From contig JAZOAC010000132.1 in assembly GCA_045595285.1 (NCBI GenBank), positions 456 to 64,455 of the forward strand: 64,000 nucleotides of DNA, in the 5' to 3' direction. The position numbers were made by a program, and so were the translations under genes. A model generated the notes under the pieces. The model was not told where the DNA came from and searched no databases. It saw only the letters and a list, made by a program, of their open reading frames with translations. Of the stretch, positions 17,210 through 23,464 are shown piece by piece. The stretch is from Kiritimatiellia bacterium (lineage in GTDB: Bacteria > Verrucomicrobiota > Kiritimatiellia > RFP12 > UBA1067). Every line of letters begins with the position of its first letter. The stretch's first letter is position 1.

Positions 17210-20200
17210 CTAGTTCGATGCATCTGAAGAGCTCACGAAAAGGGTCCCCCACGTCGACGGAGTGTGCGGGACGCCATTTTGCCACCCAAACGCCCCGCAT
17301 TTCGCGTTCCTGTCGGGGAGTCCAAGCGAAACCCTTTCGAAAAAACGGAGCTGCGGATTGACGTTCGGCTCAAACTGCAGGGATGAGAACGGAATGACGA
17401 CAATGGCGCGCCAGCCTTCCTGGGTCTTTTCGACACGGCTCTCCCACTTGCAGTCCTTGCTCCCATCCGAAACGACCGCTTTGTTGCGGGTGCCGTCCGC
17501 CGCCAGCATGAAGTGCCGGTAGGAAGCCCGGTCCGCCTCGAAAAACAGTTCTATGAAATCCCCAGTCGAGCAGGCGTTGCGGTCCGAAGTGGAATGCGTC
17601 ACGACGGGCAGTCCGCCCTTCTTCACGTCAATGCCGAGGACGAGTTCCCGTTCGTTCGCATAGATGCGCGTATTGACGCCGGCGGTTTCAGGGATGGCGG
17701 CAGGGCGTATGCGGGTGAAGCCCGTCAACGACGTACCCCGCGACCACGGCTTCCCGTGGAACATGTCGAAATGCGGCTTTTTCGGCGTACCCGTGAAACG
17801 GACGCGCGTTTCGACCTGTTTGTATTTGGGCGATTCGTCGATCCACATCTCAAGGATGCGCTGCATGGATGCAATCCATTTTCTACGCTCTTCGCAATCC
17901 GCTTTCGCAAAGGCCGCTTTCAGCGCTTCCCGGCACTTGTCGGATATTCCGTTCTGGACTATGTAGATCGATGCCATTCGGAACGGATTGTCGCAGAAGC
18001 CTGACGAGATGCTGTTGGAGTACCATGACCTGCGCACCTCGCCATAGAAACGCCCTACATCACCGGCGGCAGGGCCGAACGTACGCGAAAGGAATTCCCT
18101 GCGCAATGCCGCCGGGTCAAGGGACGGATTCCAGAAGAGCCGCTCGACAACCCAAGCCTCCATCGCATTCATGTCGTAGAATTCGGATCTGGGGCGCATT
18201 ACTCCCTTTGCATTGGCCCCCTGCATCACTTCGTCATCGGATTCGACAATAGGCGCATATACGTATTTCCCTCCTTTTTCAAGGAAGTAGCGCAGGTCGA
18301 CTGCGGCGGTGTCGGCCATCGGCCTGGGGAAGAACAGGTTTCCGCACCAGTAGTACTCCCTGAGTCCGATCTCCGCACCGCTTGCAAGCCAGCCGTCGAG
18401 CTTTTCCCTCCAGCGGCGATTGGTCGAACCTTCCACAAACGATTCGCGCATGTTACGCGGATAGGGGCAGAAGCGGACTATGATGTTCTTCTCGAGCTTG
18501 ATGCGCGGAGCGTCGGTAAGGTGGTAGTATCCGTGGACTATGGCCTTCGCGCCTGGACGGACCGCCGCCACGCGCCGGGCGACCTGGTTGTAGAACCGGA
18601 AAAAGCGCGTCGAACGGTAGGCCGGATCGCCAGCCTCAAGGAACGTTCCGTCATCCAGGCGTATCGGCTTCTGGCACTCGTCGCACTGGCATGTAAGCAC
18701 ACGGTCCTCTATCGTGATGTTTATCAGCTTGATGTCGCGCGGCACGGATGGCATCTTCCGTTCGACGGCATCGCAGAACGCCTTGACGAATCCAGGATTG
18801 CTTTCGCAGAAATTCATCTTCCCGCCCGTCCAGCGCTTGCCGTCGATCATCATGCGGTATTCCGGATGGTCGGGACATTCCGTCTTCGGGAACCACACCT
18901 TCTGCATGTTGTGTCCGCGGCCGCCGCCCCAGTAATCCTTGTGACATCCGATCATGCCGTACCGCACCGCAAGGGTGCGATGCTCCAGACGGGTGCCGCG
19001 ATCATGCAGCGACGTATCGCCGTTGCGCACCCTGTAGCGCCAGATTTCCGGCAGTTTCGAGCCCGAACCCAATGTCCGCCTGAGGAATGCGGGAATGTCC
19101 ACATACTCGTCCTGAAGTCCCTTCCATCCGTCCGGCGCCGGACGCTTCGTGTAGAAGCAAAGGTCGCCGCCGGGCCTTGGCCAAATGATATCGGTATGCC
19201 GCTCCAGCCACTTGTGGACACCATTGACGAGTCCCTTGGGATTTGCCGCAACAAAGTTCAGCACGCCGTCCCTCCATCTTACGGCATATCCGTCAGTCCC
19301 TTCCAGACGATTCCAGTCGGCGGCGAACAGACCATTCTCCGAAGGCAGCCGGAAACGGACGGGCGGAGCGGAACCGAAAACCTTCGTCGCAAAGTTGGTG
19401 AACTCCTCATGCGCCCATTCGACGGCCGGATGGCTCGACATAGGATAATCGAACGACCAGAACTTCTCGGGAGAGAGAAACACGTGCCCGACAATCCCCG
19501 TAATGTCGAACATCCAATCTTCAAGAAGGCCTTTCTCCGCCTTTTTGAATACGGCCTTCCAGAGTCCGGCATCGGCCCCCGCCTGCTCGATATGCCCCTT
19601 CCAGGCAAACACGGACGGACAGTTGTATACGCTCCGGCCCGTCGAGGAGACCAGCTCGACTCCTATGGCTTCGCTGCCGTCACCCGAAACAAAGAATCCG
19701 AACTCCGGCGCATATTCCGGAACGGAGAAATACAACTCTCCCTGAGAGCCGATGGCCGCACACCAGTCAGACGTAAGATCGGCAGCAATGGGAGCAGCGC
19801 ACTCAAGAAGCGACAGCTGCAGGCCGATGCGCCTTGAGTCAAGGAAATAGAAGCCCGCCCTGGGCGCATCGAACTTCAGCGTCTCCACGTCCTTCCCCGG
19901 CAAAGGGACGGAAGCAATAATCTTGCCGTCAACATCGGAAAATTCCACTTCCCCGGATACGGCGCGGGAATATCTGCCGATGGGATTTTGCCTCCACTTG
20001 AACTTTATGGTTCTGGCGCGATCGGCATAGAATACAAACCGCAACTGATGACGGAAACGGATTGGCGAGAGCTTGACCATCTCGCCAGGACGGGAGTCTG
20101 AAACCCTGGCCCGGGAGAAATCCGGAGCAGGCTTAACGGTCGGAACCTTATTCTTCGCCGAAAGGAACGGAAGGTTTCTGACAACCCATTCGTCATCAAC

Positions 20201-21346
20201 CTTCGTCTCGACCACTCTTCCTCTCTTATTCCGCTCGACGATGCGACAACCGGTGAACTCGCAGGTGAACGGGCATCTCAGAGAGGCCTTTATCGAAAAG
20301 ACGTTGTTTCGCGGATGCTCGAACGAGCTGTCGCGGAATATGAGCCGTCCGCCGATTTCCGAGCGGTCGTCCCGCGTGTTGTGCACGGTGACAGCTGTTG
20401 CATTGCCAATGGTGCGGCAGCGTTCAAACACCATGTCAAAGGGCTGCGATTTTCCCGGAACCAACCTGCCCAGGGCAAGCTCTATGCCATGACTCTTGTT
20501 GTTCTCAAAGACACAGTCCCGCATCACAATGCCCCGCATCAGATCCTCCGGGGAATTCGGCTCGAAGTCTATCCCCGACTGCGGCGGCAATCCGCGTGTG
20601 TTCTTGAACGTGCAGCGTTCCACAATCAATCCATCGACACTTGTGACACTGATTCCCTGACGGACGCTTGTATCGACACATACGTCTTCGATGCGTATGC
20701 CGGTGGAGGCGCGCACGCCGTCTGTGATGCCGAAAGCCTTGCCCCGGCGCTTCTTGAGAGCGCCCACATAGATGCCGTCGCCTCCGGCGTTAAGTATCTT
20801 GAGTCCCCTGACTATGGCATTGTGCGTCCCCAGTATTGTTATGGCGTGACGCCATTCGGATTTCCGGTACGGAGGCTTCAGGTAATCATCGTGGTGCATA
20901 CGAAGAACGCCTTTGCCTCCTATCACGACATTGCTGCACCCCGGAAACGAGAATACGCAATCATCCTTTCCGAGATACGCGCCTTTCTTGGCCTCCACCA
21001 CCGCACCATCCTCGAAGAATATCTCCTGGTTAGAACGGCCCCGCAATGGCAGCACAATCCAGCGGCGGGCATCGACCACAACCTTTTTCGCTCCGGAATC
21101 GATTGCCGCCTGCATAAACCTGGTGGAATCTTCAGCGTCGAAGCCAAACTCCGAAACCCGCACCACATCCTTCGCCAATGAAGACGCGACGGCCAATGTC
21201 ACCACGACCGCAAGATTGAACTTATGTGTCATCCTGCAGAGCAGAGATCCATGCCCCGGCATTGCCGATGCTATTTTCCCCACGTCAAACCGTACATGCG
21301 GATTTCCCGCATACGGCTTTCCATTGATCGCTTCTCTCTTTGCCAC
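17210..21346 (-). CDS. Large secreted fusion: right-handed beta-helix + DUF4838-like GH domain + CBM9-like domain
   Basis: GGDGIYVG, RQGISVTS, PQSGIDFEPN (beta-helix); NGVHKWLE, HNM, MNFCESNP, VRFCP (DUF4838-like); GDFIELFF...GWRAIVVIPF (CBM9-like). The signal peptide starts at ATG 21232. An alternative GTG at 21346 has an SD. Confidence 0.8.
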   Translation of the reverse strand: MAKREAINGKPYAGNPHVRFDVGKIASAMPGHGSLLCRMTHKFNLAVVVTLAVASSLAKDVVRVSEFGFDAEDSTRFMQAAIDSGAKKVVVDARRWIVLPLRGRSNQEIFFEDGAVVEAKKGAYLGKDDCVFSFPGCSNVVIGGKGVLRMHHDDYLKPPYRKSEWRHAITILGTHNAIVRGLKILNAGGDGIYVGALKKRRGKAFGITDGVRASTGIRIEDVCVDTSVRQGISVTSVDGLIVERCTFKNTRGLPPQSGIDFEPNSPEDLMRGIVMRDCVFENNKSHGIELALGRLVPGKSQPFDMVFERCRTIGNATAVTVHNTRDDRSEIGGRLIFRDSSFEHPRNNVFSIKASLRCPFTCEFTGCRIVERNKRGRVVETKVDDEWVVRNLPFLSAKNKVPTVKPAPDFSRARVSDSRPGEMVKLSPIRFRHQLRFVFYADRARTIKFKWRQNPIGRYSRAVSGEVEFSDVDGKIIASVPLPGKDVETLKFDAPRAGFYFLDSRRIGLQLSLLECAAPIAADLTSDWCAAIGSQGELYFSVPEYAPEFGFFVSGDGSEAIGVELVSSTGRSVYNCPSVFAWKGHIEQAGADAGLWKAVFKKAEKGLLEDWMFDITGIVGHVFLSPEKFWSFDYPMSSHPAVEWAHEEFTNFATKVFGSAPPVRFRLPSENGLFAADWNRLEGTDGYAVRWRDGVLNFVAANPKGLVNGVHKWLERHTDIIWPRPGGDLCFYTKRPAPDGWKGLQDEYVDIPAFLRRTLGSGSKLPEIWRYRVRNGDTSLHDRGTRLEHRTLAVRYGMIGCHKDYWGGGRGHNMQKVWFPKTECPDHPEYRMMIDGKRWTGGKMNFCESNPGFVKAFCDAVERKMPSVPRDIKLINITIEDRVLTCQCDECQKPIRLDDGTFLEAGDPAYRSTRFFRFYNQVARRVAAVRPGAKAIVHGYYHLTDAPRIKLEKNIIVRFCPYPRNMRESFVEGSTNRRWREKLDGWLASGAEIGLREYYWCGNLFFPRPMADTAAVDLRYFLEKGGKYVYAPIVESDDEVMQGANAKGVMRPRSEFYDMNAMEAWVVERLFWNPSLDPAALRREFLSRTFGPAAGDVGRFYGEVRRSWYSNSISSGFCDNPFRMASIYIVQNGISDKCREALKAAFAKADCEERRKWIASMQRILEMWIDESPKYKQVETRVRFTGTPKKPHFDMFHGKPWSRGTSLTGFTRIRPAAIPETAGVNTRIYANERELVLGIDVKKGGLPVVTHSTSDRNACSTGDFIELFFEADRASYRHFMLAADGTRNKAVVSDGSKDCKWESRVEKTQEGWRAIVVIPFSSLQFEPNVNPQLRFFERVSLGLPDRNAKCGAFGWQNGVPHTPSTWGTLFVSSSDASN
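21236..21321 (-). ncRNA. Group II intron domain V + degenerate domain VI remnant
   Basis: GAAAGCCGTATGCGGGAAATCCGCATGTACGGTTTG has the AGC triad, stem, GAAA loop and bulge. It is followed by ACGTGGGG...CTCTGCTCTGC, which resembles a DVI end (canonical CTCTACTCTAC). No RT gene and no domains I-IV nearby. Confidence 0.85.
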
Positions 21347-21381
21347 AGCTTTCGTCCTTTCTTCGCTTTAAATGGCTGTGA

Positions 21382-21408
21382 ATTATATTTGTTTTTTTTT
21401 TCTGTCAA
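21382..21408 (-). promoter_or_regulatory. Consensus sigma70 promoter TTGACA-N15-TATAAT with an A10 tract in the spacer
   Basis: tgtcaa at 21403-21408, attata at 21382-21387, and t x10 at 21392-21401. Confidence 0.7.
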
Positions 21409-21418
21409 ATCCGCGTTT

Positions 21419-23464
21419 TCAACGCCCAAGATCACACGCACCCTCGTTGCGGTTTGCAAAACGGTAAAGGCGGATGGCATCGGGCGCGAGCGGAGCATCG
21501 GGCGCAACGGCTCCCGTCTGCGGCTCTGTTACGGATTGCGGTTTCCCCAATCCGTCCACATTCACTGCCGCCGGTTCTGCTGAAATGTTCCAGACGATGA
21601 CACCACTGCCTTTCTTGCCAATGAAACGCTTGGCTATACAGCCTTTGCCGGTAAATATGAATCCGTCCGTATCCACGAAGCGGCCTTCGAGAAGAATATC
21701 CGAGTTGGCGTGCTGGAAGTCTGAAACCGCTTTCATGTAGCCGGCAAGAGTCCCCTTCGGCCCCGACTTCAGTATGGCGAAGTTGGGCACTCTGATAACG
21801 GTCCCGTAGTTTGTGGTGACATTGCCGGTTTCCGCGTATATGCGGTCCGGTCCATACCGCAATTCAACATCGTGGCGCATGCCGAACACAACAGTATAGT
21901 TCACCATCGGCCTGTCCTCGATCGGCGTGGGCACGCGCACGGTGGTGGCGAGTTCCGGGAACGTGTAGCGGACAAGTTCCGGCCATTCATTGCCGGGATT
22001 CCGGCCGTTTCCGCGAGACTTCATGAACGATTCGCAAGAATCGCGGCTTGCGCAGTAAGAAATACCGTGCCAGAACGCAATGGAATCCATAATAGTGTCG
22101 TGGAAGCCCTCCGTCATAACCGCGAAATCGGGATCCACCGTACGCATTTCGGCTGCGACACGGTCAAGAAAACCGACACGCTCCTCCGCGTAGCTGTATG
22201 CCGGCACGAGATGGCCATGCCCTTTACCGTAGCAGGCGTACGGACCAGATACACCGAGCTGATCGTAGAGAATCGCGTCTGCCCCCAGATTCTTCGCATT
22301 GCGGGCGAGGGACAGCATCCTGTCGAACCACGGCTTGGAATGAAGACAAGCGAGCGCCTGATCGTAATTGGGAATGTCGCTATACTTGTGGTAATGCTGA
22401 ATAACCAGTCCGCCGTCTTTGCGGATAAGCGAATGATCTTTGCCGTACTCGTTCCAATACCTGGTTGCGCCGACATGCTGAAGCTGCCCGTTCGCGTACA
22501 GGCAGACCCGCTTGCCGCGCTTCTTGAGAAGTTTGATTCCTTCGACAAGCGCATCGCGTCCGCCCATCTTCGGACACGGTTCGTAGTCGGGATAAAGATG
22601 ATCGTGTCCGCCGACGGTCCAGCCGAAGAGCCCGATCATGTCGAGGCCGAGCGAATCCGCATAGTCCGCCAGTTTCCCGAAATCTCCATAGGGCCAGAAA
22701 ATCTCCTCGTTCTGCTGCTTGAGTATGACGAGAAGCCAGCCGTTCACCTGTTTCGTCCAGGCGGGGGAAGCAGTCGCTTTGTGAACCGTGTCATACCAGG
22801 CGCGATACTTCCGCGCCGCCGCATGCCAGTCGCCTTTGTAGCGGACGTATGACACCATAGGCAGCTTCCATATCTGCCCTGAAGCGATGAAGACTAAGTG
22901 CTTCGGCACAATTGCCGCCTTGTCACTCTCAGGCCGATAGCGAAGCGCGAAACTCTTCGCGTTCGCGCGGGAATCCAGCACCATCACCGACGCGCCGGAT
23001 ATTCCGTCGTCGAGCGCCACCCACGGCATGGTGAGCTTGCGGCTTGGATAGACATACGTCTCGAATGTAAATTCTCCTTCTGCCGCGGATTTCCATTCGA
23101 CCGCATCACAGGAATCGTTTATCTGCGCAAAATTCGACACGCGCCGCCCGAAACCTTCCGGCACGTAGAATCCAGAACGGGCCTTATCTACGGGCAGCCC
23201 TTTTATTATCGGACCTTCAAACGATGTCACAAGCCCTTTGCCGTTATTGGCGATGCGTCCGGTGAAATCCCATCCGTCCGCTGTTTTCACAGGCTCAAGC
23301 ACGACCTCGATGTCACCCCGCGGCGCCTCGCTCGTCACCACCGCGACACTTCCGTCGGGCTCCTCGACCGTCAGCCGCCATTCCCAGGACATGGCAGAAG
23401 CGTTTCTTGCGACCGCACAGGCCATGACCACAGCGGCAAACCGGCCGCATGCTCCAAGTTTCAT
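21419..23464 (-). CDS. Secreted TIM-barrel glycoside-hydrolase-like protein (DUF6259-like)
   Basis: Signal peptide. GLFGWTVGGHDHLYPDY...MGG...LYANG...ILYDQLG...MTEG. Confidence 0.65.
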   Translation of the reverse strand: MKLGACGRFAAVVMACAVARNASAMSWEWRLTVEEPDGSVAVVTSEAPRGDIEVVLEPVKTADGWDFTGRIANNGKGLVTSFEGPIIKGLPVDKARSGFYVPEGFGRRVSNFAQINDSCDAVEWKSAAEGEFTFETYVYPSRKLTMPWVALDDGISGASVMVLDSRANAKSFALRYRPESDKAAIVPKHLVFIASGQIWKLPMVSYVRYKGDWHAAARKYRAWYDTVHKATASPAWTKQVNGWLLVILKQQNEEIFWPYGDFGKLADYADSLGLDMIGLFGWTVGGHDHLYPDYEPCPKMGGRDALVEGIKLLKKRGKRVCLYANGQLQHVGATRYWNEYGKDHSLIRKDGGLVIQHYHKYSDIPNYDQALACLHSKPWFDRMLSLARNAKNLGADAILYDQLGVSGPYACYGKGHGHLVPAYSYAEERVGFLDRVAAEMRTVDPDFAVMTEGFHDTIMDSIAFWHGISYCASRDSCESFMKSRGNGRNPGNEWPELVRYTFPELATTVRVPTPIEDRPMVNYTVVFGMRHDVELRYGPDRIYAETGNVTTNYGTVIRVPNFAILKSGPKGTLAGYMKAVSDFQHANSDILLEGRFVDTDGFIFTGKGCIAKRFIGKKGSGVIVWNISAEPAAVNVDGLGKPQSVTEPQTGAVAPDAPLAPDAIRLYRFANRNEGACDLGR

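Follow-up and report, generated by a model that had tools for sequence, protein, structure and literature searches.

Group II introns of the IIB1 clade are found at the initiation and termination codons of proteobacterial housekeeping genes, as in Avi.groEL and EcKTE56.groEL (Michel et al. 2007; summarised in PMC12584367). These introns have a CL1-type reverse transcriptase (RT) with an endonuclease domain and a subdomain Ia of 300-700 nucleotides (nt), and the mechanism by which such specialised introns locate start or stop codons is said to be unknown in the 2025 paper (PMC12584367). Here we describe a comparable lineage through one of its remnants, located in a 64,000-nt stretch from a Kiritimatiellia bacterium (contig JAZOAC010000132.1 of assembly GCA_045595285.1, positions 456 to 64,455; hereafter the window). 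On the minus strand of the window, the gene for a secreted protein resembling carbohydrate-active enzymes (CAZymes) opens within a segment that corresponds to domains V and VI (DV and DVI) of a group II intron. We think it probable that this segment is an exapted, unspliceable 3′ remnant of a start-codon-homing group II intron, which would now serve as an expression cassette and would lengthen the N-terminus by residues that are lost when the signal peptide is cleaved.

Like the IIB1 introns, those of Kiritimatiellae insert at or adjoining start codons (24 of 25 junctions here), and some have a possibly comparable extra 5′ segment, about 142 nt long in the copies on contigs C157, C87 and C42 and missing from the copy on C67. 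Both groups also appear to be host-friendly, in that the groEL introns recreate a stop codon, and the Kiritimatiellae intron supplies a replacement Shine-Dalgarno sequence (SD) and start codon. The differences lie in the Kiritimatiellae host, in an RT without the endonuclease (En) domain whose nearest solved structures are class C RTs, in targets that are mostly genes for secreted CAZyme-like proteins as opposed to housekeeping genes, and in the promoter/SD/start cassette and the very many exapted remnants. The best PDB relatives of the RT encoded on C157 are class C RTs at 192 bits, ahead of 6ME0, which we take to be the T. elongatus IIB maturase, at 147 bits.

The insertion sites of class C (IIC) introns follow hairpins of transcription terminators or of attC. 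The Kiritimatiellae introns share with them a compact ribozyme, an RT without En that most resembles the E. rectale, R. intestinalis and GsI-IIC RTs, and a target that seemingly combines few paired bases (here ATG and the first exon A) with a second feature that is not sequence-specific. They differ in inserting after SD-ATG, and their ribozyme gives Rfam matches to D1D4-6 and D1D4-4. Truncated and fragmented bacterial group II introns are reportedly familiar from surveys such as that of Dai and Zimmerly in 2002, and our copies resemble them in that they all stop at one 3′ end, are cut at various points on the 5′ side, have lost the RT and domains I to IV (DI-DIV), and are present in multiple decaying versions. 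We know of no ordinary intron fragments that are read in frame into a neighbouring gene or that supply it with a promoter, SD and start codon, whereas here in-frame reading is the rule and persists after loss of DV. This rule holds for 78 of 81 unique copies, which were pooled from this genome and from public Kiritimatiellae metagenome-assembled genomes (MAGs) of ruminant and human guts and which underlie all counts for the 3′ side. The trans-spliced group II introns of organelles, such as psaA in Chlamydomonas and the nad genes in plant mitochondria, likewise have a DV/DVI-plus-exon unit apart from DI-DIV. In contrast to these split introns, no partner half was identified here and the splice signals of the window copy are mutated; splicing is unnecessary here, since an in-phase start codon is present. 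Our literature searches turned up no description of these Kiritimatiellae elements, of their leader peptide or of their insertion after start codons.

A domain V/VI remnant in frame with a secreted-protein gene

A single open frame of 1378 amino acids (aa) runs from GTG 21346 through DV and DVI into the host protein and ends at 17210 (Table 1); eight codons separate the GTG from the DV hairpin. The host protein has Pfam matches to Beta_helix (2.5e-9) and DUF4838 (7.8e-34). An earlier note on this stretch had placed a promoter, an SD, the GTG, a DV hairpin, a DVI-like segment and a downstream ATG in one frame of the minus strand, and all of these are present. Its attribution of the hairpin to group II introns also holds. 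The Rfam model Intron_gpII (RF00029, DV plus DVI) matches 21321-21210 with 39.5 bits (E 4.1e-6, with 901 nt searched), which is significant even though it lies 0.5 bit under the gathering score of 40. Because of this half bit, a search of the whole window at the gathering threshold listed no match. The window has a single occurrence of the 31-nt DV core, and 100 shuffles have none. DV is identical to the family consensus at 33 of 34 bases, and the hairpin, with its AGC triad and 2-nt bulge, is recovered in the fold. The fold of DV and DVI together has a z-score of -3.0 in the window, against -4.5 for the family consensus.

The features needed for splicing have decayed in this copy. Where the family consensus has the 3′ motif GGGTCTCTACTCTAC, which is found in 69 of the 81 copies, the window reads GGATCTCTGCTCTGC; as the earlier note had proposed, the bulged branch-point A is changed to G (21242), as is the A of the terminal AC (21237). 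The family consensus (..CUCUA, whose final A is bulged, followed by CUCUAC) folds with a bulged A and the window sequence folds without one. The window DVI keeps 39 of 54 consensus positions (72%), with changes that are mostly transitions and that introduce no stop or frameshift, and from the RT tail to the end of DV about 98% of positions agree with the subfamily consensus. A search for DI-DIV and the 5′ GUGYG upstream of DV gave no D1-D4 Rfam match in the window. The segment is a group II intron remnant without DI-DIV, RT, branch-point A and 3′ terminal A. Because the latter two are mutated and DI-DIV are gone, the window copy cannot self-splice. It is also a mosaic, in which a young part from the promoter-like site to DV is joined to an old DVI, and recombination between dispersed copies would be the simplest and most likely origin of this arrangement.

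These losses bear on the proposal, also made in the earlier note, that the segment is a trans-splicing or non-autonomous half. Its DV/DVI-exon RNA would pair with a separate DI-DIV RNA and be spliced to a short exon ending in ATG, which would restore the native N-terminus. Most remnants are equipped for such a reaction, since DV, the bulged A and the 3′ motif are all intact in 69 of 81; moreover, 5′ exons end in SD-ATG, so that a spliced product would be translatable, and several intron 5′ ends lie at contig ends, where their 3′ continuation is not visible. However, the window copy lacks the branch-point A and terminal A, its orthologs have no DV at all, and splicing of the leader would leave no need for an in-phase SD and start codon or for frame-preserving indels. 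We identified no stand-alone DI-DIV unit; where the sequence is contiguous, each 5′ end is part of a copy that is either full or internally deleted. Taken with the mutated splice signals, we regard trans-splicing as extremely unlikely at this locus.

The DV frame is in phase with the 3′ splice site in the 78 copies across five length classes, DVI-loop insertions of 69 and 117 nt stay stop-free, and leader lengths in this genome (105, 108, 111, 114, 183 and 225 nt) are all multiples of 3. We dropped the stop-freeness of DV as significant in itself; because DV can be read without a stop in two of its three frames, the in-frame argument rests on phase, on the SD and start codon, and on the in-frame indels. 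An in-frame start codon preceded by an SD lies 7-11 codons before DV in 74 of 84 unique upstream contexts, as ATG in 53 and as GTG in 21. Since this position alternates between ATG and GTG only and the indels preserve phase, translation initiation from the remnant appears to be under selection.

Insertion directly after start codons

Intron 5′ ends were compared in this genome and its relatives. Among 25 independent 5′ junctions, 24 read SD-N5-9-ATG/GTGCGCC (with GTG as the start codon in one; the slash marks the junction), and the exons have nothing else in common. In this genome, an SD and ATG stand before each of the intron 5′ ends that were found. On the 3′ side, the first exon base is A in 77 of 81 copies and the first encoded exon residue is K, R or N in 65. 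In 69 copies the exon continues as an open frame, either for 100 codons or more or as far as the contig reaches; 55 of these are without a start codon in the first three exon codons, and 60 (about 87%) precede a hydrophobic stretch resembling a signal peptide. Because the exon starts with A, mostly without an early start codon, and continues into such a stretch, the 3′ exon encodes the host protein without its Met. Within this genome, a paralogue of one host gene that is without the element has an ordinary SD-ATG and a 22-residue signal peptide. The homing site of the parent introns lies directly behind the start codon.

The same target is shown independently where elements have landed on one another. 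In the tandem stacks of proteins P0045, P0056, P0060 and P0002, the younger leader starts exactly after the Met of the older one (..GSLLY/TTGKALNGKPYAGNPH..), so homing is also directed to the start codon of a remnant. Public proteins show stacks of two to four leaders, and this genome has one at C5:47078-47234.

Putative expression signals, their retention and the proposed fate of the leader

One subfamily has both promoter-like hexamers in perfect form; this is the case in 33 of 79 unique contexts, with 21 spacer variants of 13-19 nt (mode 15). The promoter-like site of the window is identical to the family consensus at 28 of 28 positions. A promoter consensus scan reported nothing at this site, because it needs a spacer of 16-18 nt and that of the window is 15 nt. 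We treat TTGACA/TATAAT as a putative promoter from the conservation of its hexamers. The A-tract between the hexamers ranges from 7 to 13 A among copies; it lies at 21401-21392 in the window, and in the ortholog contigs described below it is A10 in five and A9 in one. The tract could make the promoter slippage-tuned or phase-variable, and homopolymer assembly error is also possible. In one relative (L072, G003:C26), the promoter-like module (TTGACA-A-tract-CAAATATAATTGCCGCCATTT) stands without DV/DVI before an ordinary SD-ATG signal-peptide gene, and in another (L074, G009:C1) a perfect promoter-like site precedes a strongly decayed DV-like leader (MATENTLDGGTNAADPRRAGRF).

If the remnant were inert debris, translation would start at ATG 21232, whether or not upstream transcription contributes, and the GTG, SD and promoter-like site would be unused. 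The position of this ATG, three bases past the former splice site, fits this explanation, as does a promoter spacer of just 15 nt. Several observations oppose it. In 55 of the 69 other copies with an open exon, the absence of a start codon from the first three exon codons leaves that of the remnant as the sole candidate, and both the alternation of ATG with GTG and the in-phase indels point to selection on translation. In addition, orthologs of the window gene keep the promoter-like site, SD, ATG and frame while losing DV. Because ATG 21232 is without an SD, while all 24 host starts have one 5-9 nt upstream, we infer that translation begins at GTG 21346, and we consider inert debris unlikely.

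The orthologs also separate the contribution of the RNA from that of the expression signals. P0194, a 97%-identical ortholog of the window protein, is encoded on six metagenome contigs (L234-L239). On these contigs DV is absent and the leader is 39 nt shorter, yet it is still in frame (MTGRGSFKMEEALTAMPGHGSLLC/RMTHK..), and TTGACA/TATAAT, the SD and an ATG are intact. The ortholog leader is common with the old DVI tail of the window from GGCAATGCC onward. Homology between the window and L234-L239 begins at the 5′ edge of the element, and the upstream sequence and genes differ entirely, which suggests a rearrangement at this edge mediated by dispersed remnants. Because the orthologs delete DV in frame but keep the promoter-like site, SD and ATG, the hairpin is dispensable at this locus and the expression signals and frame are not. 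A second pair, P0015 and P0016, was considered as a test of selection on the leader and rejected. The upstream gene, leader and signal peptide are ~100% identical and the mature part is 55-93% identical (60-nt windows), so that the pair is a recombination mosaic and says nothing on this point.

Dispensability of the hairpin weakens another suggestion of the earlier note, namely a domesticated regulatory RNA. Acting in cis, the DV hairpin, 24 nt into the coding region, would in this case control translation or mRNA stability across a regulon of secreted proteins. DV is the best-conserved part of the remnants, with 28-34 of 34 positions kept even in diverged copies, and its hairpin is very stable in the fold. 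However, DV is also the most conserved part of active introns, and remnants would share it without any constraint of their own. It is cleanly deleted in the orthologs, where the expression signals are kept, and is decayed in L074 beside a perfect promoter-like site. DV hardly varies among copies, leaving no covariation to assess. A regulatory role for the hairpin is very improbable on this evidence.

The leader could alternatively be a selected sorting peptide, an extended signal region (GKPYAGNPHVRFDEG...RRGSLLYK) comparable to ESPR or YSIRK or to the n-region of twin-arginine translocation (Tat) signals, with its likeness to DV/DVI only historical. Its distribution lends some weight to this. 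Among 1.84 billion protein clusters, 464 representatives start with the leader peptide (E <= 1e-3), almost always at residues 1-38; the 60 open-exon copies noted above precede a signal-like segment; and SRRGSLLYK stands directly before the hydrophobic (h-) region. The DVI-encoded end of the leader (residues ~30-39, ..TSRRGSLLYK) places S-R-R-x-S-L-L directly before the hydrophobic core and is loosely Tat-motif-like. A word-based protein search returned 43 proteins with the leader and very diverse downstream domains, and cytoplasmic hosts include an SDR on C67, an FGGY kinase (P0027), a glycosyltransferase (P0006) and an RpiB-like protein. A dedicated sorting function is disfavoured because the leader is also carried by these cytoplasmic enzymes. 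Further, the DVI-encoded half varies freely and tolerates the 69- and 117-nt insertions, and in orthologs of the window protein GKPYAGNPHVRFD is no longer present. The window protein, the sole leader-bearing protein scanned, has no Pfam match at its N-terminus. Copy numbers of 0-26 among species of one genus, with DNA up to 99% identical across genera, point to recent mobility. For these reasons we hold a sorting peptide to be improbable.

We return to an exapted intron remnant and propose the following mechanism. A source intron lineage, abundant in gut and rumen Kiritimatiellae, would retrohome to SD-N5-9-ATG, leaving the intron between the start codon and an exon that begins with A. Between its RT stop and DV the intron would carry an outward-facing cassette made of a sigma-70-like promoter with an A-tract spacer, an SD and an ATG or GTG, whose reading frame would pass stop-free and in phase through DV and DVI into the 3′ exon. 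A host gene cut off from its own start by the insertion would then still be expressed without splicing. At the window locus, DI-DIV and the native 5′ untranslated region and ATG would have been lost, and transcription would proceed from the promoter-like site of the remnant, starting downstream of TATAAT. Translation from GTG 21346 would place a 37-residue extension before the native signal peptide (RMTHKFNLAVVVTLAVASSLA/KD), and signal peptidase would remove this extension, leaving the mature enzyme unchanged. We hypothesize that remnants accumulate on secreted proteins because the extension leaves with the signal peptide, together with a preference for ATG/A(A/G).

Several points weigh against this mechanism. 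Promoter activity, initiation at GTG 21346 and signal-peptide cleavage are predicted from sequence; the 15-nt spacer is suboptimal for sigma-70; and ATG 21232 is a possible alternative start, though without an SD. Most remnants (69 of 81) keep a perfect DV and 3′ motif, which could reflect youth or some further constraint. Neither an empty site nor a full-intron allele of the window gene was found in 40 relatives, where the best match, from a large paralogous family, is 42% identical, and the 97% orthologs already carry the remnant. A search for an empty site of the C164 host gene was likewise uninformative, giving distant matches. The place of the cassette within a complete intron of the TTGACA subfamily is reconstructed from fragments that contain the RT tail.

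The parent intron, its decay and its spread

The genome is a 3.8-Mb, 184-contig gut Kiritimatiellae MAG. It contains 29 RF00029 matches, 17 of them over the gathering score, and 44 BLAST pieces of the cassette, many at contig ends; the repeat breaks the assembly. The element is therefore not a single copy, and the earlier note was right in expecting a repeated cassette of promoter, SD, start codon and DV/DVI that forms an in-frame leader ahead of mostly secreted-protein genes. The GKPYAGNPHVRFD N-termini that it mentioned for this lineage are indeed found in public proteins. Exact DV plus DVI matches occur in >111 stretches of GTDB genomes, nearly all of them Kiritimatiellae MAGs (some labelled Lentisphaerae) from rumen, omasum, rectum and human gut. 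RF00029 matches per species within the genus range from 0 to 26, and 99%-identical cassette DNA is found in another genus, a combination that is the signature of a mobile element and not of an old protein domain. A genome of the same order, G033, has 31 matches to the DV/DVI model, 30 with the identical score of 48.2 bits, and is apparently a separate intron bloom unrelated to the start-codon lineage.

The RT locus that the earlier note called for is present. The single intact RT open reading frame (ORF) of the assembly (C157:504-1943, 480 aa, RVT_1 and GIIM, TIGR04416 at 377 bits) ends past the GIIM/X domain, gave no HNH/En match, and lies inside a complete intron, C157:4-2050, with D1D4-4 and D1D4-6 Rfam matches and a GTGCG 5′ end. 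In this intron an SD and ATG overlap the RT stop (ATGA), 36 codons before the 3′ splice site. The 142-nt extra 5′ segment of the copies at C157:4-190 (L030), C87 and C42 is followed by a repeat, at 145-190, of the first ~45 nt of the intron, and the C67:17815 copy begins directly at this second repeat, without the segment. The long form is seen in most 5′ junctions of relatives, and the segment has several SD-like and ATG motifs (AAAGGAATG, GAAAGGAAG).

Every copy has the same 3′ end (..CTCTAC), and the 5′ extents vary. Some copies reach into the C-terminal coding region of the RT (..RLKFADSYYGEMAHYGLYRLATARTRI followed by the stop codon, with this TGA inside TTGACA), some begin at the hairpin GCAACTGCGAG, the window copy begins at GAAAACGCGG, and others extend only from the SD onward. 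Internal deletions have left the true intron 5′ end in place in the copies on C105, C24 and C67, with both ends retained on C24 and C67; the copy on C105 consists of 43 nt of the intron 5′ end and about 300 nt of the 3′ end, and the C67 form has DI-DIII of about 350 nt. This pattern of a fixed 3′ end with variable 5′ truncation or internal deletion is decay of full introns, and it does not bear out the discrete miniature, non-autonomous element that the earlier note had in mind. The mini-introns at C24:1302-1845 and C105:6781-7080 have both true ends (ATG/GTGCGCC to the 3′ end) with only ~345 and ~220 nt, respectively, between the 5′ end and DV, and are probably too short for a complete domain I fold. 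No intact full-length member of the TTGACA subfamily was found in this assembly, and the best candidate, a copy in G015, is apparently disrupted by an insertion sequence. This copy (L077, G015:C8:43000-49500) is 99% identical to the cassette, belongs to another genus and has half an RT ORF, the 5′ end of which is overlapped by an opposite-strand ORF of 275 aa, a putative transposase. The remnant at C140:49925-50202 has no in-frame gene (its frame meets a stop 4 codons later), and the gene that follows is provided with an SD and ATG of its own; upstream, an RT-tail fragment is fused to the apparent SD-ATG-MKLLVIALM start of another gene. The C140 copy is probably rearranged and non-functional.

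The layout of the window copy is given in Table 1. Homology among the aligned copies begins at its 5′ edge, where longer copies encode the RT C-terminus (...YGLYRLATARTRI and stop) with the RT stop codon inside TTGACA, and the RT remainder in the window is the final ~12 nt of this tail. The stop codon of the upstream ORF (TGA, 21421-21419) straddles the edge. The earlier note put the end of that gene about 100 nt away, which is accurate for the distance to DV (about 98 nt) but not for that to the GTG (72 nt). The upstream gene carries DUF6259, and its protein is too distant from P0030 to tell whether the C-terminus is truncated at the junction. After the 37-residue leader, the pattern of residues is that of a signal peptide, with a positive n-region (RMTHK), a hydrophobic core (FNLAVVVTLAVASS; mean hydropathy 2.37) and a predicted cleavage site at SLA/KD.

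Table 1. Features of the intron remnant and its host gene in the window.
Feature	Position	Strand	Basis
Promoter-like site: TTGACA (21408-21403), 15-nt spacer with A10 tract, TATAAT (21387-21382)	21382..21408	minus	direct reading
Ribosome-binding site AAAGGA (21360-21355), 8 nt, then GTG (21346-21344)	21344..21360	minus	direct reading; start-codon use predicted
Intron-derived leader ORF, 37 codons (MAKREAINGKPYAGNPHVRFDVGKIASAMPGHGSLLC), in phase with host gene	21236..21346	minus	ORF reading
Group II intron DV hairpin	21287..21320	minus	Rfam RF00029 alignment, exact core match, fold, identity table
Decayed DVI, 51 nt, ending CTCTGCTCTGC, and former 3′ splice site; last intron base 21236	21236..21286	minus	comparison with family consensus
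Former 3′ exon start (native N-terminus minus Met), encodes RMTHKFNLAVVVTLAVASSLA, Sec-type signal peptide	21173..21235	minus	sequence pattern
Internal ATG without SD, preceded by AGG, three bases past former splice site	21232-21230	minus	direct reading
Remnant 5′ edge: last bases of intron RT ORF tail (GAAAACGCGGAT; family form GAGAACGCGGAT)	21409..21420	minus	alignment of copies
Host gene, 1378 aa including leader: secreted right-handed beta-helix and DUF4838, CAZyme-like	17210..21346	minus	ORF list, Pfam

We speculate, tentatively, that the remnants derive from an undescribed intron lineage that recognises initiation regions as such (SD, start codon and A) and is built for read-through, with its decay products exapted at scale as promoter, ribosome-binding site and leader cassettes. 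In that case, the variable A-tract might make the control of secreted glycan-degrading proteins and surface proteins phase-variable, or different from strain to strain, in Kiritimatiellae of the gut. Recognition of the start would perhaps combine a 3-nt exon-binding site 1 (EBS1; CAU, with a candidate in the GUUAUCAUUAAAAC loop) with an RNA module that senses the SD or with initiating ribosomes.

The window feature itself is a decayed and recombined remnant, and its interest lies in the lineage that it reveals. Target rules could be derived and tested on its dozens to hundreds of natural insertion sites and its tandem "fossil stacks", and its remnants are dispersed repeats that break assemblies and appear to mediate rearrangements. 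If our reading is correct, hundreds of Kiritimatiellae proteins in the databases would open with about 38 residues translated from the catalytic hairpin of a ribozyme, with consequences for annotation, signal-peptide prediction and the calling of start sites. It would also describe a low-cost way for an intron to live inside genes, by landing after the start codon and bringing a replacement promoter, ribosome-binding site and in-phase start. Secreted proteins would be ideal hosts for such an intron, as the extra peptide would leave with the signal peptide.

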